In this document: positions 1 through 61,139 of the stretch, one piece after another
Position numbering within the stretch: position 1 is the stretch's first letter
Layout: every line of letters begins with the position of its first letter
From: a virus
Taxonomy: Duplodnaviria > Caudoviricetes
IMG/VR virus record: IMGVR_UViG_3300028886_000070
Location: 1 to 64,000 of that record
Length of the DNA: 64,000 nt
Strand: one strand, 5' to 3'
The notes under the pieces: model-generated
Told to the model about the DNA's origin: nothing
What the model saw: the letters and a program-made list of their open reading frames with translations, nothing else
Database searches by the model: none
Position numbers and translations under genes: made by a program

Positions 1-216
1 AACGCGGAGCTCAAGGCGAAGGGCGAGTACGGCAAGTACAACCGCTGCGTCGAGGGCGACGTCTACGACACGCGGGAGATTCTCGAGCTGAAGGAGGGGC
101 GGACGACTCCGCAGGGCTACAGGGACTGGAACGCGCTCGCGGCGTTCGTACGCAAGACGGCGCGGAAGGTACTTGCCTTCGCGAAGGAAGTCGATCCGGT
201 CGAGGAGAACGAATGA
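1..216 (+). CDS. hypothetical protein, 5'-truncated by window edge
   Basis: Frame 1 is open from base 1 (NAELKAKGEYGK...EENE) to TGA 214-216, overlapping the next ATG (ATGA). Confidence 0.6.
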   Translation, partial: NAELKAKGEYGKYNRCVEGDVYDTREILELKEGRTTPQGYRDWNALAAFVRKTARKVLAFAKEVDPVEENE

Positions 217-536
217 CACTGACTATACCGACGACGCCGGCCGAGTGGGCGGCGTCGAACGACGGCGCCAAGGGGCCGTGCCTCCTCGTCTCGAGGGACA
301 GGGAGGGGCTGCCCCGCTGGGTGGGCGTCGACAAGGACGGGTTCTGCGAATCCTTCGACACGCTCGACGGCGCGCTTCTGTTCGCCGTCGGGTTCCTCGA
401 CCCCGGCAAGGGAGGCGAGGGCGAGTACCGCGCGCTGTACGACAGGCCGGGCCAGGCGAAGCTCTGGTTCGAGCAGGTGCTGCGCAGGCTCGAGGCGGAG
501 GAGCGCGGGGACCCACACTGGGAAGCCGTGAGATGA
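213..536 (+). CDS. hypothetical protein (107 aa)
   Basis: GAGGAG RBS, ATGA overlaps at both ends, high GC3. Confidence 0.7.
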   Translation: MTLTIPTTPAEWAASNDGAKGPCLLVSRDREGLPRWVGVDKDGFCESFDTLDGALLFAVGFLDPGKGGEGEYRALYDRPGQAKLWFEQVLRRLEAEERGDPHWEAVR

Positions 537-811
537 ACAAGGCACTGCTGAAGCAGTTCAGGAAGTGGGCCTTCGGGCTCATGAAGGTGAACCCGGACTA
601 CGTCCGGGATCCCAAGCGGCTCCGCGACTACGTGAAGGGCCCGAACTGGAACGCGTGCGGGTGCGAGTACGCGCACTTCCGCGACACCGTCGGCTTCTAC
701 GGCGAGGAGCTTCTCGGCATGTTCGAGAGGCTCCGGGCCGGAGAGGGCGAAGAGGGCCTCGCGGAGTACAGGGCGCTCCTGAAGGCCGCGGGCATAGAGG
801 AGGCGAAGTAG
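533..811 (+). CDS. hypothetical protein (92 aa, MNKALLKQF...)
   Basis: ATGA overlap with the previous stop; abuts the next gene; real start lies within track ORF 173..811. Confidence 0.7.
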   Translation: MNKALLKQFRKWAFGLMKVNPDYVRDPKRLRDYVKGPNWNACGCEYAHFRDTVGFYGEELLGMFERLRAGEGEEGLAEYRALLKAAGIEEAK

Positions 812-1072
812 ATGGCGCACAAGTACAAGGTGCGGCTCACCCTCATGCTGAACACCTACGTGGAGGTCGAGGCCTCCACGCAGGACGAGGCGGAGTCGAA
901 GGCGTTCGACGAGGTGTGCCGCTGCGAGAAGGACGACGAGCGCTGGATCGACGACGGCGACATCCAGGTCGAGGACGACACGTGCGTCCTCGTGGACGGC
1001 CAGTGGGAGAACGCCCACTTCGTCGCGAAGGAGCTCGGAGGCGAGGGCTTGACGCCGGACCCGGAGCTATGA
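812..1072 (+). CDS. small acidic protein, DpnD/PcfM-like pattern
   Basis: GAGGAGG RBS; YKVRLT...VEVEASTQDEAESKA pattern; family call is weak. Confidence 0.55.
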   Translation: MAHKYKVRLTLMLNTYVEVEASTQDEAESKAFDEVCRCEKDDERWIDDGDIQVEDDTCVLVDGQWENAHFVAKELGGEGLTPDPEL

Positions 1073-1078
1073 TATAAT
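1049..1078 (+). promoter_or_regulatory. sigma70-like promoter, class I
   Basis: TTGACG-18 nt-TATAAT with TGn extension, upstream of the helicase. Confidence 0.7.
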
Positions 1079-1129
1079 AGGAACCCGTTAGCCCAAGTTG
1101 GGCCTGGAAGGAAACCAAGTGAAACACTC

Positions 1130-2452
1130 ATGATTACGCTGAAGGAATGGCAAGTCCCGCTTGCCGAGCACCAGACGAAGGTGCTGCGCGAAGGGAAGGT
1201 GATGCTGTCCGCCTGCCACACGGGGAGCGGCAAGACCTACCTCGCATGCCAGACGATCAGGGATCTCAAGATGCCCACGCTCGTCGTGTGCCCCAAGGTC
1301 GCGATCTCGCAGTGGAAACACGTCGTCGAGGGCATGGGCTGCCGGCCCTACGTCATCGACGTCGTGAACCCCGAGAGGCTGGTCGCGGGCAGGAACCCGT
1401 ACTACAACAACGACACCGGCTGGGCGTCGCTCGACGGAAACCGCCCGTGCCTCCTGGTGGTGGACGAGGTCCACCGCGGATGCAGCGGCCCTGACTCGAA
1501 GCAAACCCTCATGTGCGCGCGGTGGTGCAACAAGCTCCACCCGCTCAACAAGGAGCTGCTGATGTCCGCGACTCCCTTCGAGACCCCGGAGAAGATGCGC
1601 CTCATCGGCTACCTGATGGGGTTCCACCGCTTCGTCAAGTCCAGCTTCTACGACTGGATGAGAACGAAGAACTGCGGGTTCGTCGACATCGGCTGGGGCG
1701 CCCGCAAGCGCCGCGTCTTCCGGTTCACCACGAACAGGAAGAAGGCCGAGGAGACCATGCGCCTCATACGGCACGAGATGGGAGACCGTTTCATGTCGAT
1801 AACGCCCGAGGAGATACCGGACTTCCCGGACGAGACGCGCGAAGTGGTCCGCATCGACCTCTCGAAGCGAGACCACGACGCGCTCGTCCGCGCCTACGAG
1901 GAGATGCCCGAGCGCATCCAGCACATGTCGCAGGACGACATGGTGAAGATGCTCCGGCTACGCCAACAAGCCGAGTTCCTGAAGGCCGAGGCGGTCGCGC
2001 AGGAGGTCATCGAGGCGGTGAGGTCGGGCTACTCGGTCTTCCGCATGGTGAACTTCACCGACGCGAGGACGAGGCTCGAGAACTGCCTGCGGGACGCGAA
2101 GGTGCCCTTCGCGAACATCTACGGCGGGCAGAAGGAGAGCGAGCGGCAGAGGGGCATAGACGAGTTCCAGGCGAACCAGGTGCATGTCATGGTGGGCATG
2201 GCCGCCGCCTGCTCCGTCGCCCTGTCGCTGCACGACGAGCGCCACGAGAGGCCGAGGGTCTCCTGGATCAGTCCGGGCTATTCCGCGAGCGAGTTCTCGC
2301 AGGGCCTCGGGAGGATTCGGAGGGTCGGCGGCACGCCCGTGACGCAGTTCATAGACATCGCCGCCGACTCCGTCGAGGAGAAGGTGGGCATGGCAATCGA
2401 GCGGAAGATGAACAACCTCTCCGCTCTTACTGACAAGGATCTGATGAGATGA
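1130..2452 (+). CDS. superfamily 2 DNA helicase (DEAD/DEAH-like)
   Basis: Walker A HTGSGKT, motif II DEVH, motif III SAT, motif VI QGLGRIRR. Confidence 0.9.
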   Translation: MITLKEWQVPLAEHQTKVLREGKVMLSACHTGSGKTYLACQTIRDLKMPTLVVCPKVAISQWKHVVEGMGCRPYVIDVVNPERLVAGRNPYYNNDTGWASLDGNRPCLLVVDEVHRGCSGPDSKQTLMCARWCNKLHPLNKELLMSATPFETPEKMRLIGYLMGFHRFVKSSFYDWMRTKNCGFVDIGWGARKRRVFRFTTNRKKAEETMRLIRHEMGDRFMSITPEEIPDFPDETREVVRIDLSKRDHDALVRAYEEMPERIQHMSQDDMVKMLRLRQQAEFLKAEAVAQEVIEAVRSGYSVFRMVNFTDARTRLENCLRDAKVPFANIYGGQKESERQRGIDEFQANQVHVMVGMAAACSVALSLHDERHERPRVSWISPGYSASEFSQGLGRIRRVGGTPVTQFIDIAADSVEEKVGMAIERKMNNLSALTDKDLMR

Positions 2453-6398: not shown

Positions 6399-6405
6399 AT
6401 GCGCC

Positions 6406-18538: not shown

Positions 18539-18728
18539 GATATGCCCCGAAGCGAGGGGATTCATACCGCAGGAGCTGACGTGCTGGGCGCGCGTGTCGT
18601 GGGACCGCCACACCGGTGTCGGCTTCTGGAAGAGACTTTGGCGTAGCCTTTCCGGCTACTACGACTGCCCGAACGAGGGCCTGCTTCCCTGCTCCAGGTT
18701 CAGGGACGTCACTAACGAGGCATTATGA
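18528..18728 (+). CDS. hypothetical protein (66 aa)
   Basis: AGGAG RBS, overlaps its neighbours. Confidence 0.5.
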   Translation: MASEICPEARGFIPQELTCWARVSWDRHTGVGFWKRLWRSLSGYYDCPNEGLLPCSRFRDVTNEAL

Positions 18729-24616: not shown

Positions 24617-27600
24617 TCAGTAGTCCATCGGCTTCGGGGGCTCCACGGCGAGCGTCCGGTACGGGTTCTTGAGCGAGCCGCGTATCACGGCGCGCATGAT
24701 CGCGCGCTCCTCGGGCGTGAGGTTCTTCTTCCAGTCGCGGCCCTGCGCCTTCATGCGGTCGCGGATGGAGCGCATGACGGCGCGGCGCTTCGCCCCGAGC
24801 CTGTCGAGGACGCGGGCGACGCGGTTCAGCCTCTCGGTGTCGAAGGGCTTGGAGAGGTCGTCGGGCAGCGCCTCGAAGAACTCGCCGTACGCCTTCGTGA
24901 GGACGCGGCCGAGCGCCTTGTCGAGCTGCCGCCTCGGGTCGAGCCCGTTCCTCCGGGCGTCGGCGAGGATGTCGTTCACCGCGTTGCGGGCGAGCATCGA
25001 GCCGCGGCCCTTCCTCACGCCGAAGGCGTAGTTGGCGCGGTCGTTGTACGCCCACGCCGTGAGCGCCTTCTCGAGCCTGTCCTGGATGTTCGTCTGCGAC
25101 GCGCCCATCTGCACCGGCCCGAAGACCGGGAGGATTCCCGCGTCACCCGTGCGCGTCACGCCGCCCACGGTGAACGGGAGGAACGCCTGCGCGAGGTTGA
25201 AGAGCGCGCCGTCGGTCGTCGGGTCGAGCCAGCGCTCGAACTGCCCCTTGTCGTCCCACGGGAGCGCGCGGTCGAGGTAGGCGAGGTTGCGGCCCATGAT
25301 GCCCTCGAGGATGCGCTGCGTCGGCATCGAGAGCTTCGAGAAGAACTGCGCCGACGCGTCGTCGAACCAGCGGAAGAACTCCCAGCCCTGCTTGCCGAAG
25401 TGCATGTAGTAGCGGCGGTTCCTCGACGTGCGGTTCGCCGCGTCGTCGCCGGTGTACATCGGGACGAGCGACGGGACGAGCGATCCGACGCCCGCGCCCA
25501 TCGCGCCCCCGATCGCGCCCGTGAGCCAGTTGCCGCCCCGGCCCCCGAGGAACGCGCCGGCCGCGCCGCCGACCATCGCCGCGGCGGGCCCGCCGTTCTT
25601 CTTGAACGCCTTGAGGGCCCCGCCCAGCCTCGTGTCGTCGAAGCGCTCGATCGCCTTGAGGAGCGGGGTGAGGTCGAACGCCGTCCACCTCGTCTTGTCC
25701 TCGTTCTGCCACGTGAACCAGCGGTCGTCGTCATCGTCCCCGCCGCCGAGGCACTTGGCGAGCCCCATCGCGAGGCACTGCATGAGCGCCGGGACGCCGA
25801 TCATCACCGCGCCGAACATCCGGCACCAGCGGCCGAGGAGGTACTCGCGCTCCTGGCGCGTCACGCTGTGGCCGCCGAAGAGCATGTCCTCGATGACGCC
25901 GCCCCCGCCGGCCTCCCACGCGCCGCGGGTCCACTGCCAGGAGAACATGAGCGTGTTCATGAGCGCCCGGTTCATCGGGTGCGCCCACGCGTACCGCAGC
26001 GGGTCGATGCCGCCGATCTCGGCGTTGATGTAGCCGCCGTAGCGCTTGAGGTCGCGCACCGGGTCGAACGCCTTGCCGCGCGCCTGCGCCTGGTGGCGGA
26101 GCTTCATGGCGAGCTGGGCGATGACAGCGAGCTTCGTCGCGTTGAGCGCGTAGCTGAACGCCTTGTCGCCCTGCCGCAGCGCCATCGTCTCCATGATGCG
26201 CCCGAACTTCGCGGCGGTCTGCGCGCCGAAGCTCCTGCGCAGCGCCTCCTTGAGCCGGTTGATGTCCGAGGCCATCGCGGACTTCGTGGGCTCCATCGGG
26301 TTGACGAGCCGGCTGCTGAACGTGACGCCGAGCGCGGAGCCCCAGGCGTACAGCTCGGCGAGGAACGGGTCGTTCGAGTCCATCATGCGCATGATGTCCT
26401 GGAACCCGAGGAAGTCCTTCGTGATCCAGCCCTTGCCGCCGAACAGCTTCTGCACGCCCGCGAACAGCTCGGGGTTGGATTTCGCCCACTTGTCCATGAA
26501 CTCGAGGTTCGAGCACATGGTCGCCATCGCGCCCACGGCGCCGATGGGCGACTCCCACTTCGTCGCGAGCGGGAAGAAGAACGAGAAGCTGACGCTCATC
26601 GACTTCGACCAGGAGAGGCAGCGGTGGAGCGTGGCGCGCACCGCCGGGCCGCCGAAGCCGAGTATGCGCCCGGCCTGCGTGAACTGCTTGAGGTAGCCGA
26701 GCGCCTCGCCGCCGCCGAGGGCGTTGAGCGCGGACGACTCCTCGCCGAGCTGGTCGTCCTCGCGGACGAGCCACCCGTTCACGGACATCACGTCGCCGTC
26801 GTCGCCGGAGACGAGGACGTACCTCTTGCCGCCGATGCGCGTGTTGCCCTTGCCGTCCTTGCCCGCCTCGTGGAGCGCCGTGAAGATGTCGTGCGCGTTC
26901 TGCACGCCCGACTTCGCCGGGTCGTAGCCGTGGTCGGAGAGGCCGTTGTACTCGCTCCACCACCGGGCGATCTGGTGCCACAGCTCGTCCGGCACGCCCG
27001 AGAGCTCCGCCGCGTGCTGCGCCGGGTCGGCGTAGTACGTCGGCGCGCCGTCGTGCGCCGGGGTGAGCAGCATGTTGACGAGCGTCGAACGGGCCATCAT
27101 CGCGTTCGTGAGGCCGTCGATCGCCGCGTGGACCTTGTGCCCGATCTGGTAGTTCGCCGGCAGGACGCCGTAGCGGCGGAACGCCTGCTCGTCGGTGATG
27201 CCGACACGCCCGCCGAAGAGCTCGCCCGCCTGCTCGCGCCCGCTCTCGAGGGCCGCGAGGACGCGCTCCGCGCTGCGGACGTCGAAGCCCCTGCGGGCGC
27301 GGCCCTTCACCGCGTCCATGAGGCCGTTGCCCACGGCGCCCCAGCCGGAGGCCCTGCCGTCGATGCGCTGGTCCCACACGATGTCCACGAGCCTGTCGTA
27401 CACGGCGCGGGCGACGTCCGCCTTCGTCGCGTCGGCGGCGAGGACGAGCCCCGTCCTCGCGGAGCGGCCCTCGCCCTCCACGGCGAACTCGCCCGCCGCG
27501 ACGAGGTCCTTGAGCGCCATGCCGCGCTCCGGGACGCCGTACGCGTCGGCGAGCATGTCGAGGAGCGGCACGGCCTCCGAGGGGTCCAGGGACGCCACGG

Positions 27601-30600
27601 GCTTCGTCGCGTCCGCGGAGTTCGCCGCCTTCACGAACGCGGCCTCGGCGGCCGGGAGCTCGCCGAGCATCTCCTCGGCAGCGTTGCGGTTCGCCCGGAC
27701 GGCGTTGTACATGAAGACGCCCGTGCCGCGCCAGAACGGGAGCGCCGTCCCGAACGCGTTGAAGTAGCGCCCGTCGCCGTGCGTGAGCCACGGGTGCTGC
27801 TTCGCGAACATGACGGCCTTGCGGTACACGGCCATGAACTCGGAGGCGACGCGGTCGCGGTCGAGCATCTGCGGCGTGCGCCCGCCCTCCTTCGAGGTGA
27901 GCTTCGCGTACGCGGCGGAGGACTTGAACATCCTGTCGATGTCGTCGCACCGGACGGACACCGCCGCCGTCTTCCATATCCTGCGCCCGTCGGCCCAGCG
28001 CTTCCCGCCGGGGTTGTGCCCGACGACGAGGCCGGAGCGGCGGAGGTCGCCGATCACGAGGCTGTTGAAGAGCGCGGAGTCGTCCGGGCTCTCGGTGCGG
28101 CGGGCCATCCCGGCCCTCGCCCTGCGCATCGCGGCGACCGCCCCGTTCACCAGACGGTCGTACAGGTTGAGGCCGTCCCTGCCGATTATGCTCTCCGGGA
28201 GCTGCTTCGTGAGGCGGACGAGCGCGATTTCGAGCGCGTCCATCTGCTCCGCCGGGTTCCCCTCGTTCCAGCGGCGCATGACGCTCTCGCGGCTGTAGAA
28301 GTCCGCGCCCCTGTCGGCCATGTCCACGCTGAAGTAGAGGCGGTCGACGCCGGTGACGATCTCCTTCTGCCCGTTCGCGTGGCCGGCGCACATCTTCTTG
28401 TAGAGGTCGATCGTGCGGAGGTCGTCCTCGGTCATGCGCACGCGGCACGTGACGCGGCGGTAGTTGTCGAACTTGACGTACTCCGCGCCCTCGCGCCGGA
28501 CGACGGAGCCGTCCTCGAAGGCGTACTCGCCCTTCTGCTTGAGGAGCTTGAGAATCTCGCCGCCGTCCTCCACGTTGTCCCCGAAGAGGAACGAGTAGTA
28601 GTTCTCGAGGCGGGCGATCTCGCCCTTCACCGCCGCGTACTCGCGGTTCTCGGCGGCCATCATCGCGCCGATGTTGTCCTGCGCGCCGAACGACTTCCTG
28701 ACGAGCGACGACAGCCACGCGTCGCAGTTGTTCGCGATGAAGAACGACTGGTTGAAGTAGTCGACGAGGCCCTGGTTCTGGTCGACGAGGTTGGAGTCGC
28801 CGATCGCCTGGTTCGCCGCCCACTCCGCCGCCGTGACGTGCGGCGGGAGGCGGTGGCGGCGCATGATCTCGCGCTGGAACGCGATGTCCTCCGCCGTCGC
28901 CGGGACGACGTCGAGCTCCTGGTAGAACTTGGCCATCGCGGCGACCTGCCACGCGGTCGTGAGCGCGAGCTTGAGGGAGCGCTGCACGCCCCTCTCGCGC
29001 CACGAGCCGAGGAAGGTGCGCAGGTGCTCCGCCGACTTCGGGTTCTCCGTGTGGATGTTCTCCGGCGTGAGCTCCGCCTCGGGGTCGTCCACGTCGATCG
29101 GGCGGAGGTCGGCCATGAACCCGTTGTCGTCGAACGCCACGTCCTTGACGCCGGCACGCAGCGTGGAGATGACGTCGTTCACGATGCGCATCCCCTGCGT
29201 GCGCCGGTACTCCATGAGGCGCGTCTGGTCGCCGACGACGAGCAGCAGCTTCTCCATCATGTCGAGGTGCATCTTCACCTCGGCCCTCGCCGTGCCGCCC
29301 GTGGTGGACGCGAGGATGGAGCGGATCTCGTCGCGGGCCTCGCGGGCGAGCTCCGTCGCGGAGGACGGCTTCGCCGACATGATCCACGCGGAGACCTGGA
29401 ACTGCGAGGCGTGCCGCGCCTGGCGCGCGCCCACGGCGTTCGTGAGCACGTTGCCGGTGCGCCCGTCCACGCGGGTCTGCGCGAGGAAGCTCGACTCGAG
29501 CGAGTGGTACATCCGCAGCGCCGCCTCGAACGCGAGGGACTTCGCGATGTCGAGATCGTCGAACGCGGCGGCCGCCTCGGGGTTGATCGTGACGAGCGCG
29601 CGGCGGAGGCCGTGCAGCACGGCGGCGCGGTCGAGCGCCTCCGTCGCGGCGGAGTCCCACACCGGGGCCGCGTACTTGGCGCGGATGTACTCGAGCGGGC
29701 GCTGCCAGCTGCCGCCGGAGCGGAGCCCCTCCTCGAGCGCCTGGTTGATCATGCGCGCCGTGCGGTAGAAGTCGCTCGCCTCCACCATCGGGTAGGTGGC
29801 GGCGCGGGCCGCGGCGGCGACCTCGGCGTCGCGCGCCTCGTTCGAGCCGGGGACGACCGTCTCCGTCCTGCGCGTCGCGTAGGACTCGCCGGACAGGGCG
29901 CCCTTCACCTCGAGGCCCGCCGCCTCGGCCATCTCGGCGCGGAGCGGGGCGTAGGCGGAGAGGACGTCCTTGAGCGCGTCCGCGCCGGTCGCCGGGTCGT
30001 CGAGCATCTCGGCGAGGACCGACTCGACCTCCCGGCTCGCGTCCACGTCCTCCTGGGAGAACACGGCTCCCGGGGTGTCCTCGATCTCCTCGACGGAGCC
30101 GGTCGCCTCGCGGGGCGCGGTCGCCTCGGCGAGGAGTTCGGCCTCGGACTTCCCGGCGTACATGGCGGCGCGGGTCTCGGCGAGGCGCGCCCTCACCGCC
30201 TCCGCGACGGAAGCCTGGTCGAGGTTCGCGAGGTCCTCGCCGAGCAGCTCCTTCCTTCTCGCGTCGGAGGTCTGGGCGATGCCGTGGACGGCCATCTTGA
30301 AGATGGTGTCCTCGGGCATCTCCTCGTAGCTGAACCCGTGGACGAGCGCCTCGAAGAGCCCGCGCAGGAAGTCGAAGATGCGGCGGAACACGCCGCGCAC
30401 CTCGGCGGTCTCCTCGGTGTTGCCCTCGACCCACTTGCGGAACGCCTCGGCCATGCGCTCCTCGGTCTCGCCCGTCCAGGCGTCCGAGCCGTCGGCGTTG
30501 AACCGCTTCGCGAGCTGCGACCTGTCCTCGGCGGACAGGACGCCGCACGCGTCGAACATGCGCATCATGGCGTGGAAGTACTCGTGGTACACCTTCGTGC

Positions 30601-33600
30601 CCGCGTCGGCGGGGAGGCGTATCGCGCCGCAGAGCGTCGCTATGCCGCGCGCGTCCACGGACGAGACGACGCGGTTCATGGTCGCGCCGCCGACGCCGTA
30701 GCGGCGGACGAGCCCCTCGCGCACGCGGCGGGGCATCCGCAGGAAGTCGTCGGGCGTGATGCCGAGGTCGGCGGACGCGCAGAGCGACTCCGCGTAGTCG
30801 CGGGAGTCGGCGAGCGCGGAGACCTGCTCCGGCGTGTCGCAGAGCGGACCCTCGCCCACCGTGACGGAGAGGACGGCCCTCGCGTTCGCGCCCGCGTCCC
30901 CGCGCAGCGCCCCGCGTATGACGAACGACGGGCCGCCCGAGTACTCGACGGACGCCCAGCTGCCGAGCATGGCGGACATGGCGAGCGCCACCTCCGCGAC
31001 GCGCGGGTCGTACTGCCCGTCCTTGAGCGCCTTCGCCTGCGGGACGGAGAAGCCGCCCGCCGCCTCGCCCGCCCTCGCGGGGGCGGAGTCGGACGCGGCC
31101 CGGCGGTAGGAGTCGCCCCAGCCGCCGTCCATGTAGTCGAGTATGTCGGAGAACACGTCGTCGGCGAAGATGTCGCACGAGTTGCGGAAGTCCGGGTTCT
31201 CGCGCCCCTCGGAGACGCCCCTGCGCCACTTGTCGCGGACGCGGGCGAGCGCGCCGGAGACGGCGGGGTAGAAGCTGTCGCTCCCGGCGAGGCTCGCCGC
31301 CGTGTCGGCCGCGTAGCCGGCGAGGGAGTCGTAGTCCTCCTCGGAGAACGAGGTGTCGGCGACGAGGCGGCGCTTCGCCTTCGCGCCGATCTTCGCGAGG
31401 CGCTTCCTGCGCGCGAGGCTCTTCGGCGCCCAGTCGGTAGAGACGAGCAGGTCGACGAAGCCCTCGTCCGCCGCGTTCAGCTCCGCCTCCGCGTCCGAGA
31501 GCGACTCGTAGTAGCGCGCCGGGAGGAGGTTCACGATGGACGGGGACTGCGGCGTCGGCGCGCCGAGCGTGCGAGAGGTGAGGACGGTGTACGCCGGGAT
31601 GAGCTGGCCGAACATCATGGACGGCGTGACGGCGACGCCCTCGCCGAAGACCTCCTCGAGGCGGAACAGCGCGGCGCGCGCCTTCACGACGACGCGGCGC
31701 GTCTCCGGGTCGAGCGCGTCGAGGCGCTCCTCGTCGGACTTGCCCTCGAACTTGCGCCCGAGCTTCTCGGTGACGAGCTGCTCGATCGACTCGCGGGAGA
31801 GCGAGAACGTGCGCGTGATGATCGACGACGCGTCCGCCGCGTCCTCGTTGTGGTGGCGCGTCCCGCCGAACGCCGCGCCCGCGATCACCTCCGCGAACAT
31901 GGCGCGGATGCGCAGGATCGACTCGTCGTCGTTCGCCTGGAAGTTGGCGACGAGGCGCGAGAGCCCGCGGCCCGCCTCGCCGTAGGGGAGCGTGGTCTTG
32001 GGCTTGCCGGTGCGCTCGTCCTCCACCTCGACCTCGCCGTAGGCGCGGTCCGGGGCGAGGCGGACGTACGCGATCGCCTTGTTGCCGTCCGGGCGGTTGT
32101 ACTCGCGGGACGTGGACATCAGCTCGTACATGAGCGTGAACATCGCCTCGATGCCCTGGCGCATCTCGAGGACGCCGGGGTCGAGCGAGAAGTCGCCGTT
32201 CGGCGACGCCCACTGGAGGGCGTCCCTCGCGCCCGAGGCGATCGCCTTCAGCGCGGAGTAGAGGCCGCGCCCGTCGGCGACGAAGGTGTCCCCGACCTCC
32301 ACGGAGAGGTCGGCCATCGAGCGGAAGAGCCCGCACACGTAGGGGAGCTGCTGCGCGTTCGACTGGAGCGCGAGCCGGTCCCACGAGTCGAGGCCGTCGC
32401 GCAGGAGGAGCTTCGCGAGCGCGCGGCGCTTGCCGGGCACGTCCTCCGCCGCGTCGCGGAACTGCTCCGGGAACGTCTGCGAGAAGCGCCGCTCCGCCGC
32501 CGTGATGGCGCGCGCCGCTACCGTGCGCAGCCCGTCGCCGATCTCGTAGGAGAGGCGCGTCGCCGCGTGCATCCGCTCGAACGCGGACATGAGGTCGTAG
32601 GTGCGCCCGTTGGGCAGCATGAGGACGGCGCGGTCGCGGGAGGCGGCGTCGTCGCCGAGGCGCTGCACCACGGACTTGAACGCCTGCACGGTGCGGTCGC
32701 GCCGCCCGGTCGCCATGTCGTCGCCGGGGTCGGCCACGAGGTAGTTCACGGAGTTCCCGAACGAGCGCGCGGACATGAGCACCTGGCGCTTCAGGATCCA
32801 CTCGGCGAAGTCGCGGACGCGCGGGCTCGCGGCGAGCGCCGCCACGATGTCCTGCGACGAGCCGTCGGGCATGGCGGTCGCGCCGCTCTCGCCCTTCTCG
32901 AGGCCGAGCTCCTCGCGGACGAGCCACGCGACGTAGCCCGCCATCGGGTTGGAGCCGCGCCCGCGGGCGACGCCCTCGACGATCGCGGAGACGGCCTTGC
33001 GCCCGCCTCCCTCGGCGAGCCCGTCCGCGACCGACTCGACGGCGGCGACGAGCGCGGCGCCGTAGGTGGACGGGTCGCCGGAGGCGCGCCACGGGTCCTT
33101 CGCCGTGCCGGAGCCCTCGATGCCGAACGCGTCGACGACGTTGCTCCGGTAGAGCCTGTCGCCCCCGCCGAGGACGGCGGAGCAGACGTAGCGCCTCGCG
33201 TCCATGTCGCCGACGCGGCTCGCCCGGAGCATCTGCCAGAAGCGGCCCTTCGACTTGACCTCGCTCGAGTACGAGGCGAGCACCTTCGCGAAGTCCTCGT
33301 CGGTGACGGGGAGGCGTCCGCCTCCCGGCCTGTTGATGAGGAGCTCGGTGATGACGGTGTCCATCATCCCGCTCGTCCAGCCGAGGCGTCCGCACATCTG
33401 CTCCTTGAGGTCGTCGAACGTGGCGTTGGAGAGGCCGTCGACGTGGTACATGAAGCGGAACCAGTCGGCGGGGCTCTCGTCGCCGTTGAAGAGCGACATG
33501 TCGCCGGACGTGAAGAAGCCGCTCGTCCACGCGAGGTGCAGCGAGCGCGCGAGCGACACGATGACGCCGCGCGCCTTCGACGCGTCGAGCGCGGCGGCGG

Positions 33601-36600
33601 ACGCGACGGAGGCGGTCTCCGGGTCGCCGATCGTGTGGTCGGCGTCGAGGACGGGCGGGAGCGCGTGCTCCATCACGGCGTCCTTGTTCGACGTGGGGAA
33701 CGGGTTCGTCGGGCGCGAGGCGATGCCGCCGAGGAACTTGCGGCGCGCGCCGCCCTTCTCCGAGGCGCGCGGGACGACGCGGGCGCGCCCGTCGGCGCCG
33801 ATCTCCTCGGCGTCCGTCGGGAGCCTGCGGGCCATGCTGAAGAGCCCGCGCACGAACGAGTTCGACACGCGCCGGCGCACCGGCTCCGCGACGCGGTAGT
33901 ACCATCCCTCCGGGCTCTCGCCGTCGGGGACGTCCTCCTCGCGCTGCTCCTCGTCGTTCCACACGGTCTTCTGGAGGAAGCCCGCGGCGGCGAGGTCGCC
34001 GAGGTATCTGTCGCGGGCCGAGGGGTCGGACGCGAACGTGGACGCGTCGGCGGACGGCGCGGGCGGGTTCGAGAAGCGGGTGGAGCCGTCGGCGTCCACG
34101 GTGAGCATGTAGAGCTTCGTCTTGTCGCCGTCGTGGTCGCAGCCGAGGATCGCGTTCGTCGTCGGGTCGGGAGACACCATCGCGTCGCGCCCGACCTTCC
34201 ACCGCTTCGCGGCCTTGCCCTCGGAGTCAGTGCCCTCGTACTCGATCTCCGTCACCGGGAGCCCGGCGCGGACGACCTGTAGCCACATCGAGCCGTTGTA
34301 CGACGGGGTGCGCGGGAGGCCGAACATCGTGCCGCCGAGGAACAGGTGCGACTTGCCGTCCGCGTCGAGCGTCACGGCGTCGTCGCCGAACTGGACGGCG
34401 GAGAGGTCGAACACGTCGCCGCGCCCCCTGTCCGCGTCGCGCATGAAGAGGTCCTCGATGCCGAAGCGCTCGACGTACCTGTCGCCGTGCTCGGAGATCT
34501 TCTGGCCGTGGTGGTCGAGGAAGACCCCGGCGATCGCCTCGCGCAGCTTCTTCGCCTCCGCCTTGGCCTCATCCGCCCCCTCGCGCCCGGGCTCCGCCCT
34601 GCGCTGGAGGTCGCGGAGGCGCGTGAACGCGCGCCCGAGGGCGAGCGCCCGGACGTGCCCGCGGGTGTCCGCGCCGGGCGAACCGGCTGCGTCGAGCTCC
34701 GCGGCGGCGATGTCGGCGGCGAACGCCTCCGAGGACTCGAACGCCTCCTCGTCCAGGAACCATCCGTAGCGGAAGCCGTTGGAGCGGACGTTCACGTTGC
34801 AGAGGGCGACGCGCCTCGGCACGCCGAAGAACCTCGCCTCGTCCTCCGTGAAGAGCGTCGAGCCCTGCATCATCGCCCTGTGCATCGGCGACTTCGAGTG
34901 GCAGAACACGTTGCCCTCGTCGTCGCAGAACGAGCCGCTCGAGACGAGCGGGGCGTCGATGCCGGAGAGCGGGAGGTTGGAAGCCTGCCGCGTCTTCGAC
35001 CACACCATGCGCGCGAGCTCCTCCAGCGCGTTCTGCCCGCGCGGGCTCTCGCCGTAGCGGGCGAGCTCGAGGAGCGACTGCGACTGGCGGCGCAGCGACG
35101 CGGCCATGCGCGGGTCGGAGTACACCGTCCCGGCGACGAGGCCCCAGTTCGCGACGAGGTCGAGGAGCTCGGGCACGGTCGTCCCGTCCTCGCCCATCCA
35201 CCCGCCGCGGGTGAGCGCGGTCGCCATCGTCACGGCGTCCACCTCGTAGTTGCGGGCGGCGCGCCCCGGCTCCGCCGGTATGCCCGACGTGTGCGAGACG
35301 TTCGCGACGGTGTAGGCCATCGCGCCGTTCTCCTGGTACGAGAGGTCGATCGCGGTCTCGCCGTCGAAGCCGTCGACGGAGTTCGCGACGACGCCCGGCA
35401 TCAGCTCGGAGAGCTTCACGTCGCGGACCGTTCCCTCCGCGAGGTCCTCGACGCGCAGCGGCCCGACCTTCTCGTCGAGCTCGTCGCCCGTCATCCTGTC
35501 GAACTTCACGCCGGACGCGGCAAGGGACTCGAGGACGGAGAAGACGTGCTCCATCACGGCCTTGCCGCCGACGCGCAGCGCCTTCGAGTTCGCGACGCCG
35601 ATCTTGTACGAGTCGAAGTCCGTGAGGAAGTCCGTGCTCAACTTGTCGGAGCCGCGCCACTTCTCGAGGTAGTCCATGACGAGGCGCTCCGAGGAGCCCT
35701 CGAGGAACTGGCCTCCCTCCTCGCCCGTGGCGACCGAGAGCGACTTGCCGAAGAAGAGGTCCTCGCCCTGCGTGGAGACCACGTGGGCCTTGAGCGTCGC
35801 GGAGCGCGGGTCCTGAGCCATCTCCTTCAGCGCCTGCGCGCCGTAGCCGCGCATGAAGGTCGAGCCCTTCCACGCCTCGGCGGCGAGCTTGTCGAACTTC
35901 TTCTGCGCCTTGGCATCGGCCATGCGCTCGGAGCGGCGGATCTTCAGGATGTGGACGCGGTTCTCGCCGAAGCGGCGCTTCACCTCCGGCGGCCTTCCGT
36001 CGACGCGGGTATAGGTCACGGAGTTCGCGAGGCCGTCCTCGCCCACGTCGTACGACACCTGGTAGACGCGGCCCTCGTGCTCCACGACGGCGGACGCTCC
36101 GAGGCCGCGCGCGTTCTCGCGCCCCTTGGAGGCCGGGGTGAACTTCTGCGTCAGCGTCCCGCCGGGGTCGAGCGCGGCGAGCTTCTTCACGGTCGCCGGG
36201 AGCGCGAGGACGTACAGGCCCTTCTCGTCATAGAGCGTGCTGCCCTTGAGCACGGCCTTCACCGGCTCGCCCTCGGGAGCCGGCGGCTCCACGGCCTGCG
36301 TCTCGACGCCGATCATGCCCGTGCCCTGCGCCTCGAGCGACGAGATGGCCGAGCGCTTCGCGTCGGTGAACATGCGGTCGAGGCCGATCGCCTTGCTCAC
36401 GCCCTTCGCGAGCTGGTCGTACGTCGCGGTGTCGCGGCCTTCCGGGACCCATATCCCGGAGCCCTCGATCTCCGCGTAGCCGTTCGACCCGAGGTACTGC
36501 TCGAGCTCCTTCTCGCCGACGTTGTACGAGGACGAGGAGCGGTAAGCCTTCGCGTCGGCGACGATGACGGCGCCGGCCTTCGTCGCGGCGTCGAGCTCGG

Positions 36601-39600
36601 CGCGGAGCGACGGATCGTCGATGCCCACGCGGTCCTTGCGACGCCCGTTGATCGAGACGCCCACCACGTCTTGCGACGTGTAGCGCCCGGTGTTCGCGAT
36701 GTCGGCGAAGTGCTCCGCGTACGCGGCGGTCGAGCCGGAGCCGAAGCCGATGAAGCGGGTGATGCCGCCGAGCTGGTTGAACTTGGCCTGGTCCTTCGCC
36801 TTGTGCCTGTTGCCGGTCGACGGCAGCACGTGGCTCCCCGTCCTCCCCTTGCGCTCCCTGTACGTCGGGTTGTCCTCCGGCGTCTGGTCCTGCGCGGAGG
36901 GGAGGAACGAGCCGTCTGGGAGGATGCGCACGGCGCGCGGCACCTGGAGGAGCGTGGACGAGCCGTGGTCGCCCGAGAACACCTGCACCCAGTACACGGG
37001 CTGCGACGTGTCGGCGTACGCCTTGCGGCACGCCTCGCGCAGCTCCACGCTGTCGTAGCTCGCGGACACGTTCTTCGCGCAGATGGGCGTGTGCCTCGCG
37101 TCCGGCCAGCAGGCGTCCTGCCTGCACCGGTTGATCTCGGCGGGGTCGGTGACGCCGAACGCCCTCTCGCACACCTCGGCGAACGAGACGCCGCCGAGCT
37201 TGCCGTCCTTGTACAGCCACTTCGCCACGATCGGCACGAGGTCGCGGGGCGATATGACGACGGACGAGCCCTCGGAGTCGCGCTCCGGGTCGATCTCCGC
37301 CGTCATGATCGTGGTCGGCAGGGCGTCGGAGAACGTCGTGAGGAACGTCATCAGCGGGTCGGAGATGGACGGCGAGCGCTTCGCCTCGCGCAGGGACGAG
37401 CGGCGCGGGTTGCCCGTCGCGAACGCGGCGGTGAACGCGGTCGCCACCTCGGAGCGGCGCACCGGGCCGGAGCCCGACTCGGCGAGCGCGTCGAGCGTGG
37501 AGCACACGGTCTCGACGAGGTCGATGTCCTCCGCCGCGCCCTTCTTGTTCTCGCGGAACGAGACGGAGGCGGCGAGGTCGCGTATGCGCTTCTCGGTGAG
37601 ATCGGCCCACGCGTTGTGCGCGAGGCCGGACGCGAGGGCGCTGTAGAGCGGGGACTCCGTGCCGAACTCGGAGGCGAGTATCTCGGCGACGAGCGACGCG
37701 TTGCGCTCGAGGACGGAGCGGGCGGACGAGCCCTGCCCGAGGGCGGCGAACTCGCCGGTGTCGCGCAGCTCGCCGACGAGCGTGCGCAGCCTGTCCGCCG
37801 CGTCGCGGAGCTCCTGGCGGGACTTGCCGACTATCGCGGCGAACCCGTTCGTCACGATGTTCTCGCCGACCTTGCCGTGCGCGGCGCGGAACGCCGGGGC
37901 CATGCGGCCCGTCTCGCGGTTGAGCCGGATCGGGGACGCGGCGACGGAGTGCGCCATGAGCTTGCCGAAGCGGATGCGCGCCTCGCGGGGGAGCGCCGAG
38001 AGGTACGCGACGAGGAACGCGCCGCGCCTCGAGAGCGGGTAGCCGCCCGCGTCCGCGAGGAGCGCCTTCACGTGCCTGTCCGCCGGGGAGTCCGCGCTGT
38101 CGAACTCGAGGAGCGTCTCGCGGTGGAGCGCGTCGTGCTCCGCCTGCGTGCGGCCCGCCGGGTTCATCTTCGGGTTGAGGAGGCGGAACAGGAAGCCGAT
38201 CGCGTCCCTCGCCTCGTCGGGGTAGTCCTCGGCGAGCTCGGCCGCCCGGTCGACGCCCATGCGCGACGCCTCGCGGGCGAGGCGCAGGAAGCCCTGGAGG
38301 TTGCGGCCCGTCTCGGGCGAGACGCGCTGCGCGAGGGCGAGGAAGTCCTCCATCGCCTCGGAGTTGTACTCGGCGAGCGCCTGGTCGTTGAAGTTGTCGG
38401 ACGAGACGTCCTCGCTCTCCTTCTCCTCCTGGGAGAAGCGCCACTTCGCGCCGGAGACGACGAAGCCGTCCCAGCCGGCGTTCGCCCGGATGCGCGCGGC
38501 GTCGGCGACGCGGTACGCGACGCGGATGTCGTCGAGCTCCTCGTCCGCGAGCGCCGGGAACATCCGGCGCGCCGTCTCCGCGACGGTCTCCTCGGAGACG
38601 CCCTCGCCGAGCGAGAGCGCGGAGCGGACGCACACGTTCACGGCGAGGCGCGCCTGGCTCCTCGTCATGCGCCGGCCCTCTATCGTCTCCGCGCCGTAGC
38701 GCTCGGAGAACGCGCGCTCCTCGGAGCGGGCCCTCGTGCCGAACGCGGACGGGAGCGGCGCCGGCTCCTCCTCGCCGTACATGGTGGAGAAGCTCTCGCC
38801 GTCGTCGGCCGTGCCGTTGTCGGAGGCGTTCCTCGCGCCGTCGGCGGCCGCGGAGCGTCCGCCCTTCAGCACCGACTGGACGGGCTTCGTCGCCTCGTCG
38901 AGCGCGCGCTTCTTCTCGGTGAGGTCGTTCGCGGCGGAGTCGAGCGCGGTCTGCGCGTCGGCGATCGCCCCGGGCGCCGGGGCCTCGGCGCGCCCGCGCC
39001 GTGCCTCGAGAAGCTGTCGGCGGAGGCCCACGACCTGTCCGCGCAGGGTCTCGACCTGGCGGGCCGCGTCCTCGTACTGCGCCTTCACGCGGGCGTACTC
39101 GTTGAGGGACTCGTCGACGGTCGCGGCCTTCTTCATCTCCCGGACGGACGCGCGGAGGGCGATCCTCTGCTGCTCCGTGGAGCCCGAGTCGGACGCGAGC
39201 GCGTCCTCGGCGACCTGGCGGAAGAACTCCGCCGTCGCGGCGGGCACGTCGCGGCCGCTGTCGAGCACCTTGCGGACGACGCCGTAGAGCTGGCCGACGA
39301 AGGTGTAGTGCCCGAGGAGGGCGGCGTCCGGCTCGCCGGACTCGGCCTGCCTCGCGGACGAGCGCAGCGCCTCCTTCTCCTCCTCGGTGATGACCGGCGC
39401 GCCGGACTTCGCCATCGACGAGAGGCGCGTGATGCAGCCGTTGAGGAAGGCGGTGTAGCCGAGCCCGCCGGGGAGCGACTCCCTCACGGCGTCGCGCAGG
39501 GCGTTGGGGTTCCCCGCCGCGTACGACATGAGCTGGCGGATGCCGCGCTGCGAGCCCGCGTCCGCGACGCCTCCCGCCGCGTTCTCCACGGCGGCGTCGA

Positions 39601-44391: not shown

Positions 44392-44420
44392 ATTATACCA
44401 TAATCGCCCCGATTACTCAA
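44392..44420 (-). promoter_or_regulatory. sigma70-like promoter, class II, for the giant gene
   Basis: TTGAGT-17 nt-TATAAT with TATGG immediately before the -10. Confidence 0.7.
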
Positions 44421-46509: not shown

Positions 46510-46519
46510 CTTCCCTCCG

Positions 46520-46897
46520 TCAGCTGAAATAGTAGTTCTCCTTCAGCCGGAGCAGCGCGGAGCCGTCCCCGGCGGCGACTGCGCGGGCGAGGCTGCCCGA
46601 CTCGGACTCCGAGAGCTTCCCGAACATGGACGAGCGGCGGGCGTCGGAGACCTCCTCCTCGCGCCCCTCCGAGCGGTTCATGCCGGCCATCATGTGCTTC
46701 GCCACGGCGTCGCCCCAGAACTGCGAGAGGACGGCGTCCTCCACGTCCGGGCGGAACGGGCCGGCCGCGGTCGCCGCGAGCGCCCTCACGTCGTCGAAGT
46801 CCATGTCGCCGAGCGTGCCGTCCGCGACGGCTCCGGCGATCGCGCCGGACGCCGCAGGGGCCATCGTGGCCTGTATCGCGAGGTCAACGCTGTCCAT
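46520..46897 (-). CDS. hypothetical virion-module protein (125 aa)
   Basis: GAGGAGG RBS. Confidence 0.65.
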   Translation of the reverse strand: MDSVDLAIQATMAPAASGAIAGAVADGTLGDMDFDDVRALAATAAGPFRPDVEDAVLSQFWGDAVAKHMMAGMNRSEGREEEVSDARRSSMFGKLSESESGSLARAVAAGDGSALLRLKENYYFS

Positions 46898-47945: not shown

Positions 47946-47947
47946 TA

Positions 47948-49549: not shown

Positions 49550-49559
49550 GCCGTTTCTC

Positions 49560-50567: not shown

Positions 50568-50584
50568 GGCAGGGTCTCCGTGTC

Positions 50585-50618
50585 GGGAGAGGCGCGGGCT
50601 CGCGTCCGCGCCCCTCCC
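50585..50618 (-). terminator. GC hairpin after the capsid gene (attenuator/stabiliser, no U tract)
   Basis: GGGAGAGGCGCGG / CCGCGCCCCTCCC inverted repeat. Confidence 0.5.
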
Positions 50619-50623
50619 TCTCG

Positions 50624-52618: not shown

Positions 52619-52781
52619 TGTTTGATTCCTTCCTCCGCGCCATGCGCGGAATGGGTTGTCGGTAGTGCCTTGTTTGTCGTCGGCTGGCGTCGTTGCCACC
52701 GACCGCGCCGTCCGGGCTGACGGAATAGACCCGAGTTCAGGCTCCCCGACGGGAAGGGAATCTTATACACCGTCGCCGCAT

Positions 52782-52811
52782 ATTATACCACAAACCGCCC
52801 GCCGATTGCAA
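52782..52811 (-). promoter_or_regulatory. sigma70-like promoter, class II, for the capsid gene
   Basis: TTGCAA-18 nt-TATAAT with TGG before the -10. Confidence 0.7.
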
Positions 52812-52819
52812 GAGGGTAT

Positions 52820-52859
52820 GGAAAAGCCCCCTCGGAACCGCTCCGAAGGGGCCTTTTCC
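52820..52859 (-). terminator. Rho-independent terminator after the scaffold gene
   Basis: GGAAAAGGCCCCTTCGGA...TCCGAGGGGGCTTTTCC on the - strand. Confidence 0.7.
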
Positions 52860-52877
52860 GCCTGCCTCGCGCGGACT

Positions 52878-54287: not shown

Positions 54288-54301
54288 GTGTCAATGTCTC
54301 C

Positions 54302-54999: not shown

Positions 55000-55042
55000 G
55001 TTTCACTCTTCCTTGTTTGGTTGTTCACGAATCCCCGCCGCG

Positions 55043-58137: not shown

Positions 58138-58138
58138 G

Positions 58139-61127: not shown

Positions 61128-61139
61128 GAAATCTCCTCA

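Follow-up and report, generated by a model that had tools for sequence, protein, structure and literature searches.

A predicted two-barrel RNA polymerase core within a 6,574-aa protein of an uncultured high-GC phage

We analysed a 64,000-nucleotide stretch (the window; positions 1 to 64,000 of IMG/VR record IMGVR_UViG_3300028886_000070) from an uncultured phage with a genome of ~95 kb and 68% GC, and found that its giant protein, P0001, contains a predicted single-chain, two-barrel RNA polymerase (RNAP) core at aa ~2819-3750. The best explanation, to which we give a probability of about 0.65, is that this core belongs to a packaged and ejected multi-module protein and transcribes the first phage genes; like crAss-like phages, this phage probably delivers a polymerase of its own to the host. 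A preliminary description of the window had proposed a single-chain two-barrel core with a DHDGD catalytic loop, and both a confidently predicted fold, closest to phi14:2 gp66 and QDE-1, and invariant motifs bear this proposal out.

Conserved motifs in a giant phage protein

P0001 is among the longest phage proteins that we are aware of, and homologs of about 6,000-7,600 aa are colinear with it. Its relatives comprise 61 close homologs, and 81 representatives occur among the 1.84 billion proteins of a library; nearly all fall within this size range. The five motifs named in the preliminary description were verified by script, each where that description had placed it, in one minus-strand ORF: TLKAH at aa 2849-2853 (K2851), FFGKS at aa 2863-2867 (K2866), FDSYKIG at aa 2909-2915 (K2913), GLPRTPSYNGSM at aa 3341-3352 (R3344), and NAILGCDHDGDKTKLY at aa 3396-3411, the last of which includes the putative catalytic loop DHDGD (Table 1).

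As one D.DGD match is expected by chance with a probability of ~0.1-0.2 in a protein this long (our estimate from composition), the motif alone proves nothing and its conservation carries the case. Conservation was counted over the non-gap rows of an alignment of 111 metagenomic homologs that reached down to <30% identity. The DxDGD motif held throughout, with D3402, D3404, G3405, and D3406 each present in 109/109 sequences, as did the R-x-P element 58 aa ahead of it, with R3344, P3346, and S3347 each in 110/110. An R-x-P upstream of DxDGD is also a feature of the RDR family. The more N-terminal positions were similarly constant (K2851, 96/96; K2866, 93/94; D2908, 94/94; K2913, 94/94), and this conservation across the 111 homologs shows that the motifs are not chance occurrences. 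The histidine at the second motif position, which had been singled out as unusual, is indeed the majority state but is no constant of the family, since position 3403 holds H in 80 sequences, T in 13, N in 11, M in 2, and Q in 1, with single distant sequences having F or C.

Table 1. Coordinates of P0001, its predicted parts, and associated features in the window.
Feature	Residues	Position (nt)	Strand	Basis
Giant ORF P0001	6,574 aa	24617..44341	-	Uninterrupted translation, GC3 0.98
Sigma70-type promoter of giant gene: TTGAGT, 15-nt spacer, extended -10 (TGGTATAAT)		44392..44420	-	
Conserved polymerase core	aa 2819-3750	33092..35887	-	Conserved block, AlphaFold2 model, fold matches
N-terminal beta-rich domain, candidate beta-like barrel	aa 2819-3018	35288..35887	-	Conservation, domain folded alone
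Five-helix connector between barrels	aa 3032-3121	34979..35248	-	Model helices H214-303
Beta-prime-like double-psi beta-barrel	aa 3125-3412	34106..34969	-	Fold matches
PRTPSYNG loop, R-x-P element before catalytic loop	aa 3343-3350	34292..34315	-	Conservation
DHDGD, putative Mg-binding catalytic loop	aa 3402-3406	34124..34138	-	Conservation and model
Long helix, candidate bridge helix	aa 3574-3607	33521..33622	-	Model H756-789, conservation
Helices, candidate trigger-loop region	aa 3624-3669	33335..33472	-	Model H806-851, conservation
HEYFH, HExxH motif, candidate zincin metallopeptidase site	aa 4586-4590	30572..30586	-	Motif conservation
Hydrophobic, membrane-spanning-like segment	aa 6173-6194	25760..25825	-	Hydropathy scan, conservation profile
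Protein with C-terminal phage lysozyme domain, downstream of giant gene	853 aa	22039..24600	-	Pfam PF00959, E 9e-18

Predicted fold of the core

The AlphaFold2 model of aa 2819-3750 (pLDDT 81.7, pTM 0.84; model residue i is aa 2818+i of P0001) was compared with PDB structures by Foldseek and VIA-align, and its best matches were only single-chain two-barrel polymerases. The top six of 48,161 PDB chains in VIA-align were all single-chain two-barrel RNAPs at Z 7.0-8.4, which is the middling range by the tool's own scale: QDE-1 (7y7p; Z 8.4, 332 residues aligned), phi14:2 gp66 (6vr4_B; Z 8.1, 488 aligned), P23-45 gp96 (8h2m, Z 7.5; 8h2n, Z 7.0), P74 gp62 (8f5m, Z 7.3), and RDR2 (7w84, Z 7.2). Behind these six in the same 48,161 chains ranked a designed double-psi beta-barrel (DPBB) and beta-prime, Rpb1, and A' subunits. 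A second comparison aligned 551 residues of 6vr4_A at Z 8.4 and placed Tth beta-prime on model residues 304..867 at Z 5.2. Foldseek against the PDB gave 6vr4, the phi14:2 virion RNAP, as the sole standout (E 0.029, probability 0.89), and a BFVD search was led by fragments of crAss-like RNAP proteins (lowest E 1.9e-5); a fold search of the ESM Atlas was uninformative (TM 0.23 or less). Our argument from fold is that all top matches belong to one superfamily, and it draws on no single score.

Within the core, the evidence for the two proposed barrels differs, with the beta-prime-like barrel being solid and the beta-like barrel less supported. The former, which bears a ~95-aa helical insertion (aa 3198-3293), is a beta-prime-like DPBB in the model, with the DxDxD loop just ahead of its last strand: DHDGD forms loop 584-588 between a short helix (H575-581) and the last barrel strand (E589-593). 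The designed DPBB 7dvc_A aligned to this barrel at Z 6.4 with 84/87 residues over model 307..594, and the beta-prime, Rpb1, and A' subunits aligned at Z 5.2-5.9 from about model residue 304. The N-terminal beta-rich domain bears the invariant residues K2851 (nt 35789-35791), K2866 (nt 35744-35746), D2908/D2910, and K2913 (nt 35603-35605) and ends at VANVxH (aa 3012-3017). Folded alone (pLDDT 81), it had a single VIA match at Z of at least 5 among the 48,161 chains, namely 6vr4_B (Z 6.3, 108 aligned), in which model 1..220 lay against chain residues 957..1350 and covered the gp66 region before the connector. Foldseek of this domain against the PDB gave nothing significant, and no generic DPBB matched it among the 48,161 VIA chains. 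We treat it as a candidate for the second, beta-like barrel, with conserved basic residues, N-terminal in the same chain.

Downstream of the catalytic loop, gp66, gp96, and Tth beta-prime stay aligned as far as model residues 867-913. The 34-residue long helix, in which R3591, V3595, and H3602 are near-invariant, is a candidate bridge helix that lies 172 aa past the catalytic Asp, compared with 168 aa in gp66. The helices that follow hold the conserved block DGxxNxxFDDxKxQxCxR and, by their spacing relative to gp66, are a candidate trigger-loop region.

Sequence relationships of the P0001 family

By sequence, the P0001 family is linked to no known polymerase, Pfam or PHROG family, or phage record. 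The giant protein had no Pfam or PHROG family above threshold; phmmer of the core against PDB sequences returned only noise (E > 2) and the family profile 0 matches; and tblastn against 50,697 phage records found no match for the core or for the C-terminal 875 aa. These results support the earlier suggestion of an undescribed lineage, and the P0001 protein family appears to be undescribed. Profile comparisons with hhalign were not significant, either against gp66 alone or between the 111-sequence profile and an 8-sequence crAss RNAP profile (P 0.25). The top local pairing of the latter comparison placed DHDGD with gp66 DFDID, which at P 0.25 is not counted as evidence.

Comparison with known single-chain polymerases

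The best and longest structural match to the core was gp66 (Z 8.1-8.4, 488-551 residues aligned), the virion RNAP of the crAss-like Cellulophaga phage phi14:2 (PDB 6VR4; bioRxiv 10.1101/2020.03.07.982082). In gp66 a helical connector joins two barrels of one chain, and the P0001 core is predicted to have the same layout; the connector is ~140 residues in gp66 and QDE-1 and comprises five helices in the P0001 model. The motif flanks of the P0001 family, G[SC]DxDxDK..Y, fit the crAss consensus GSDFD[IV]DK[ML]Y, whereas the fourth motif position is always Gly (109/109) in the P0001 family and Ile/Val in all eight crAss sequences aligned. The likeness extends to gene order, as the gp66 and P0001 genes both lie at the end of a same-strand block of a ~95-100-kb genome, and the phi14:2 block with gp66 holds proteomics-confirmed structural genes. 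A zincin-like protease is the separate protein gp65 in phi14:2, whereas the HExxH motif lies within the same chain in P0001. P0001 also differs from gp66 in being three times longer, in the ~2,800 aa ahead of the core, in the ~95-aa insertion in its barrel, and in the 68% GC of its genome. However, Crassvirales records already contain RNAP fusions that reach giant size (4,551-4,774 aa), so the size of P0001 alone is not new. Sequence homology to gp66 was not detectable for the P0001 family by BLAST or profile, and tblastn retrieves 138 phage records with the gp66 core but none from the same collection with the P0001 core. Other proteins of the P0001 phage had no match in phi14:2 by phmmer or BLAST.

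QDE-1 (7Y7P), which had the top VIA-align Z-score, and RDR2 (7W84) are likewise single-chain two-barrel enzymes with a connector but lack sequence similarity to the P0001 family. They are cellular RNA-silencing enzymes of eukaryotes that act on RNA or ssDNA, outside any virion protein.

Giant proteins of ~4,487 aa are also found in Microbacterium podophages of cluster EK, for example Akoni gp31 (MK757449; PMC8281081). Akoni and the P0001 phage both have high-GC genomes of which one gene makes up about a quarter, and Akoni gp31 has S-H-D-N-D-G-D-K at aa 809, which is the same DxDGDK pattern with the N at position 2 that 11 P0001-family members share. The best BLAST match between Akoni gp31 and P0001 over the motif had an E of 3.9, the family HMM finds nothing in it, and phmmer and BLAST found no other proteins in common between the two phages. 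In Akoni the motif lies near the N terminus and the gene is ahead of the portal gene, whereas in P0001 the motif is mid-protein.

Modules, neighbours, and promoters of the giant gene

P0001 can be divided into an N module (aa 1 to ~1700), an RNAP module (~1900-4700) that ends in the HExxH motif, and a C module (~5100-6574). The N module is missing from the giant gene of some relatives, indicating modular splits. Most relatives have HE[YFA][FY]H ~1,100-1,400 aa past DxDGD, and so does the distant tier (P0093-P0114), whose motif reads GSD[T/M/F]DGDS; the region had no Pfam match and no PDB sequence match by phmmer, and a lineage-specific insert at aa 2470-2820 likewise had no phmmer match to PDB sequences. 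The C module is the best conserved of P0001 in the conservation profile and includes the membrane-spanning-like segment, which is followed by a Gly-rich stretch at about aa 6255-6300.

The phage carries a replication module on the plus strand and a minus-strand block without family matches, in which the giant gene is second to last and the lysozyme-domain gene last. Other gene products of the minus strand measure 692, 533, 691, 469, 985, 926, 712, and 1,157 aa. The 853-aa product of the lysozyme-domain gene matches PHROG endolysin families and, weakly, an 'internal virion lysozyme motif' family (E 1e-4), and is a candidate ejected cell-wall hydrolase. Gene order suggests that the minus-strand block is the late/structural module. 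As capsid, portal, terminase, and tail proteins (tail tube included) were not identified in the phage by Pfam, PHROGs, or two Atlas look-ups, this structural label and the virion location are read only from gene order. One protein of the phage shows tail-fiber-like repeats. A bacterial genome collection was also searched for a host and gave as sole match a 91-kb, 64% GC contig in an 'Anaeromicropila' MAG, which looks like a mis-binned whole phage, so we draw no host from it.

The promoter of the giant gene is 1 of 11 near-consensus sigma70-type promoters in the 95-kb genome. The promoter layout matches that of phi14:2, whose middle and late genes, the RNAP gene among them, have sigma70-like promoters read by host RNAP. 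No convincing second class of promoters emerged when the genome and the non-coding region at 77.5-79.1 kb were searched for k-mers and repeats. A block of small genes starting at ~79.0 kb is also preceded by a sigma70-type promoter, and early transcription might for this reason not need a phage polymerase.

Proposed role and alternative explanations

We propose that aa ~2819-3750 would act as a single-chain, presumably Mg-dependent RNAP that is one module of a multi-module protein, with a predicted order from N to C of beta-like domain, connector, beta-prime-like DPBB (with R-x-P and DxDGD), and bridge-like and trigger-like helices. The gene position, the conserved HExxH, the C-terminal membrane segment, and the lysozyme-domain neighbour suggest that the giant protein is packaged in the virion and then ejected with the DNA. 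Crossing of the envelope would be aided by the C-terminal part and by the lysozyme-domain neighbour, the HExxH peptidase would possibly free the polymerase module, and this module would then transcribe the first phage genes. Host RNAP would next read the 11 strong sigma70-type promoters ahead of the replication and structural genes, the giant gene included, a division that would be as in the crAss-like phi14:2.

The same polymerase fold could instead sit in a tail tape measure protein, in which case the phage would be long-tailed and P0001 would not be an internal capsid or ejection protein of a short-tailed one. Thermus phage P23-45 has this arrangement, its gp96 being a tape measure protein with a fused virion RNAP (PDB 8H2M/8H2N; PMC10770324). 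That 5,002-aa protein combines a two-barrel RNAP with metallopeptidase and membrane domains, the same three elements as in P0001, has Gly at position 4 of its DxDGD as P0001 does, and is among the top structural matches to the core. The only tape measure hints in P0001, Pfam TMP_C (E 0.0038) and PHROG 167 (E 0.0056 on aa ~5802-6299), are nevertheless both below threshold, and the RNAP is N-terminal in gp96 with the rest being tape measure, whereas it is mid-protein in P0001. Further differences are that gp96 is without sequence similarity to the P0001 family and that P23-45 encodes a second, non-virion paralog, whereas a second polymerase was not recognised in the P0001 phage. As genes for a tail tube, sheath, or chaperone were not recognised around the giant gene, and as the phage resembles phi14:2 in genome size, in its two divergent modules, and in having the giant gene at the end of the minus-strand block, we consider a tape measure protein unlikely.

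Still less probable, in our judgement, is an active two-barrel polymerase that is no virion transcriptase but a late-gene RNAP made after infection, a primase, an RNA-dependent polymerase, or a counter-defence enzyme. Non-virion single-chain two-barrel RNAPs do exist, since P74 gp62, one of the top matches, is a relative of P23-45 gp64, and QDE-1 and RDR2 with their RNA or ssDNA templates are equally close to the core; the strong sigma70-type promoter of the giant gene would also suit such a role. However, a 6,574-aa context with a membrane segment, HExxH, a late block, and a lysozyme-domain neighbour is typical of packaged proteins, and sigma70-type promoters on all other gene blocks leave little for a non-virion RNAP to transcribe. 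That the core is no polymerase at all, but a structural or cell-wall-acting DPBB of the RlpA, expansin, or barwin type within an ejection protein, whose acidic loop binds metal or sugar for another purpose, we regard as very improbable. The barrel is also matched, at Z 4.4-5.5, by the DPBBs of expansin, loosenin, barwin-like, and kiwellin proteins, and no sequence method found a polymerase, but the best matches span 330-550 residues across both barrels and the downstream helices and are all polymerases. Moreover, the RxP(S/T) and DxDGD pair is invariant in 109-110 sequences with the order and spacing seen in beta-prime/RDR barrels, and lysozyme function comes from a separate neighbouring gene.

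Extending the reading of a packaged, ejected polymerase, these ~90-100-kb high-GC phages could form a deep, undescribed lineage that carries its infection-initiation machinery as one ~6,500-aa polyprotein, made up of a membrane-crossing part, a zincin peptidase, a two-barrel RNAP, and lineage-specific inserted domains. Self-cleavage by the HExxH peptidase after ejection would then free the active polymerase, which would form an independent branch of single-chain virion two-barrel RNAPs, the third after those of the crAss and P23-45 types, keeping the cellular Gly at position 4 while tolerating H/N/T/M at the otherwise aromatic position 2. Taken as a whole, this combination is tentative and seems to us possible rather than probable.

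Implications

To our knowledge, single-chain two-barrel virion RNAPs have been shown by experiment in only two phage groups, the crAss-like and the Thermus P23-45-like phages. Such enzymes bear on the origin of cellular RNAPs and of eukaryotic RNA-silencing polymerases, and the P0001 family extends them, as predicted here, to a high-GC lineage for which no relatives can be recognised in 50,697 deposited phage genomes. The enzyme would lie mid-chain in a very long phage protein, and the family presents natural variation at a canonical catalytic motif. The predicted polymerase core also offers a functional handle on metagenomic proteins of ~6,000-7,600 aa that are now without annotation.

Giant open reading frame and its homologs

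The giant protein is encoded by a single, unbroken minus-strand ORF within the 64-kb window (24617-44341 (-); 6,574 aa), whose third-codon-position GC of 0.98 is typical for real genes in 68% GC sequence. A script check recovered all motifs of the preliminary description at their residues, and since a protein of this length has a chance of ~0.1-0.2 (composition estimate) of holding one D.DGD match, the DHDGD motif alone shows nothing. Searching with aa 2700-3750 retrieved 61 homologs, all metagenomic (4,200-7,500 aa, 28-99% identity), whose contigs reach ~102 kb. When 1.84 billion representative proteins were searched with a family profile, only 81 matched, almost all of 6,000-7,600 aa; a distant tier among them has E-values between 1e-14 and 1e-38. 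The conserved block extends from about aa 2820 to 3745, and within it the four fixed positions of DxDGD are invariant across homologs (Table). The second motif position (3403) is H in 80 sequences of the 111-sequence alignment, T in 13, N in 11, M in 2 and Q in 1, with canonical DFDGD in one distant protein, such that the histidine earlier called unusual is the commonest state but sits at a variable position.

Table. Features of the giant protein and promoters of the phage genome. Model residues are those of the AlphaFold2 model (residue i = aa 2818+i); conservation is counted over non-gap rows of the 111-sequence alignment.
Feature	Protein (aa)	Model residues	Nucleotides	Strand	Detail
Beta-rich N-domain		1-200			invariant lysines
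Five helices		214-303			after N-domain
Barrel		307-594			~95-residue helical insertion
PRTPSYNG		525-532			second half of barrel; then hairpin, short helix 575-581
DHDGD	3402-3406	584-588	34124-34138	-	between short helix 575-581 and last strand 589-593; located by script
34-residue helix					starts 172 aa past Asp triad; near-invariant R3591, V3595, H3602
DGxxNxxFDDxKxQxCxR					conserved block beyond 34-residue helix
HEYFH	4586-4590		window 30572-30586	-	
K2851					96/96
K2866					93/94
D2908					94/94
K2913					94/94
N3184, R3191					111/111 each
R3344, P3346, S3347					110/110 each
D3402, D3404, G3405, D3406					109/109 each
Promoters			window 1070, 6390, 7686, 8164, 13695; genome 79037, 94678	+	
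Promoters			window 44400, 52790, 63900; genome 77480	-	

Predicted fold of the core

AlphaFold2, given aa 2819-3750 aligned with 20 homologs, produced a confident model (pLDDT 81.7, pTM 0.84). Foldseek against the PDB revealed one stand-out match, 6vr4, the virion RNAP (gp66) of crAss-like phage phi14:2 (E 0.029, probability 0.89), all remaining matches having E > 1, and among predicted viral structures the best matches were pieces of crAss-like phage large RNAP proteins (best E 1.9e-5). VIA-align, run independently against 48,161 representative chains, placed single-chain two-barrel RNA polymerases in all of ranks 1-6, with single Z-scores in the middling range by the tool's own scale: QDE-1 (8.4), gp66 (8.1, 488 residues), P23-45 gp96 (7.5 and 7.0), P74 gp62 (7.3) and maize RDR2 (7.2). 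A designed double-psi beta-barrel (DPBB) came next (Z 6.4, 84/87 residues, model 307..594), followed by the largest subunits of phiKZ, Pol II, archaeal, mycobacterial, Pol I, ASFV, vaccinia and AR9 polymerases, and in a second VIA comparison 6vr4_A reached Z 8.4 over 551 aligned residues, with Thermus beta-prime at Z 5.2 (model 304..867). What carries weight is that all top matches come from a single superfamily and extend over several hundred residues; judged from the model, a polymerase fold for the core is highly probable.

In canonical polymerases the element order is RAPTLH ... NADFDGD in beta-prime and RNPCLH ... DLDGD in RDRs, and the modelled barrel carries PRTPSYNG and DHDGD in this same order. 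The 34-residue helix beyond the Asp triad is a candidate bridge helix, and the conserved block after it a candidate for the trigger-loop position. In gp66 the bridge helix starts 168 aa past its triad, and both gp66 and QDE-1 possess a ~140-residue helical connector at the place of the model's five helices (bioRxiv 10.1101/2020.03.07.982082).

Because one domain can dominate structure searches, the first-barrel region (aa 2819-3128) was folded alone (pLDDT 81). Among the 48,161 chains its only VIA match with Z >= 5 was gp66 (Z 6.3, rmsd 3.5 Å, 108 residues), over chain 957..1350, which takes in the region before the gp66 connector; Foldseek gave no significant match, p97/Cdc48 N-domains, which are DPBBs, appearing only within noise. 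Of the two-barrel core proposed earlier, the beta-prime-like barrel is thus established at the level of predicted fold, whereas the beta-like barrel, with this sole match and the Foldseek null, is graded lower, as probable but not established.

By sequence, no link between the family and known polymerases emerged from Pfam, PHROGs, PDB sequences, 50,697 phage records or hhalign against gp66. Eight Crassvirales RNAP cores were aligned and set against the family profile of 111 sequences; the top local pairing joined DHDGD to gp66 DFDID at P 0.25, which we do not count as evidence. The motif flanks are alike (GSDFD[IV]DK[ML]Y in crAss phages, G[CS]D[HNT]DGDK..Y here), but motif position 4 is Gly here and Ile or Val in the gp66 kind; with homology also undetectable by sequence methods, a crAss gp66 ortholog was rejected.

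Modules of the giant protein

The family is colinear with the giant protein over its whole length. Relatives of ~5,100 aa begin at the equivalent of aa ~1800-1900 and others stop near aa 4640-4690, some perhaps cut by contig ends, and low-conservation linkers coincide with these points. We read three modules from these patterns: N (1 to ~1700), RNAP (~1900-4700) and C (~5100-6574). An insertion at aa ~2500-2800 (window 35900-36840 (-); 60-90% gaps) is missing from most of 55 full-length relatives and had no phmmer match in the PDB, and precomputed Pfam domains PF08902 and PF08719 lie somewhere in the giant proteins of some relatives; together, these absences and domains suggest a slot for variable accessory domains.

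HE[YF]FH is conserved ~1,100-1,400 aa beyond the Asp loop, distant tier included, with a conserved FxEExAAExFR block ~45 aa after it that even the most distant relatives keep. The region matched no peptidase family in Pfam or PDB sequences; it looks like a candidate zincin peptidase similar to those in phage polyvalent proteins. Conservation is highest in the C module, and there in the C-terminal ~875 aa (aa 5700-6574; window 24620-27244 (-)), where some stretches of 50 residues have 15-21 that are invariant; a search of 50,697 phage genomes gave no match to these ~875 aa. They include a DDDDD run, a Gly-rich stretch and a single clear hydrophobic segment (aa 6173-6194).

Genome layout and promoters

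The window covers the opening 64 kb of a contig of 95,069 bp (67.8% GC) that lacks terminal repeats; relatives lie on 90-102-kb contigs, all of 64-71% GC. One relative spans a whole contig (CAYPEJ010000018.1, 91,134 bp, 64% GC) that was assigned to an uncultured Anaeromicropila MAG, an assignment that probably reflects faulty binning and not the host.

The plus strand encodes a helicase, a PD-(D/E)XK nuclease, a family A DNA polymerase, an HNH endonuclease and a primase-helicase. The minus strand carries a long gene block without family matches, in which the giant gene is penultimate, before that of an 853-aa protein that bears a lysozyme domain at its C terminus. The layout of phi14:2 is broadly alike: its structural block ends with the RNAP flanked by two other large virion proteins. 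No Pfam or PHROG family, those of terminase, portal and capsid included, matched the large late-block proteins (692, 533, 691, 469, 985, 926, 712 and 432 aa; window 44431-63920 (-) and genome 63917-77438 (-)); a 1,157-aa protein is the only one in the block with tail-fiber-like repeats. Judged by these searches, a wide distance separates the lineage from the phages described so far.

Eleven strong, near-identical, near-consensus sigma70-type promoters (TTGAC(R), ~15-17 nt spacer, extended -10 TGnTAnAAT (TRTGRTAYAAT)) precede every gene block, the replication and late ones included, and the giant gene, and their likeness reaches past the hexamers (e.g. ATATGATACAATACG three times). In phi14:2, host polymerase reads the sigma70-like promoters of middle and late genes, the RNAP gene among them, and early gp66-dependent transcripts have no common motif. 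Our promoter layout fits this scheme but does not reveal the gene targets of a phage polymerase. Between the divergent late and small-gene blocks lies a 1.6-kb non-coding gap (genome 77,490-79,080; L015:17490-19080, L015 being the later part of the genome), which could be an origin, packaging site or early control region. It contains islands of very high AT content, a GACTTTTCCAAC tandem repeat and an inverted repeat with perfect 15-nt arms (L015 18546-18560 / 18607-18621).

Proposed role and alternatives

We favor, at roughly two chances in three, a packaged and ejected protein whose RNAP module starts transcription; packaging and early transcription, taken jointly, are somewhat likelier true than false. 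The giant protein would be packaged and then ejected with the DNA, the C module and the lysozyme-domain neighbor would handle the envelope, the HExxH domain would perhaps free the RNAP module, and this module would start transcription before host polymerase takes over.

In the main rival the enzyme is unchanged but belongs to a tape measure protein, the arrangement known from Thermus phage P23-45 (PMC10770324); Pfam and PHROG hints point this way, but all are sub-threshold. Less likely are a polymerase acting outside the virion and a DPBB that is not a polymerase.

A single-chain two-barrel virion RNAP in a giant virion protein is an already known kind (PMC10770324; bioRxiv 10.1101/2020.03.07.982082), and Crassvirales RNAP fusion proteins of 4,551-4,774 aa are already in records. 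New here are the family, of which literature searches found no published description, the lineage of phages that carries it, the location of the core mid-chain within 6,574 aa, and the variability of motif position 2. The 4,487-aa 'hypothetical protein' gp31 of Microbacterium phage Akoni (L025:17984-31447, in the Akoni record) holds SHDNDGDK at aa 809 and has the DxDGDK pattern in common with the family, with no significant similarity between the two. As Akoni is a cultured actinobacterial podophage, a cultured system for testing such DxDGDK proteins may exist.
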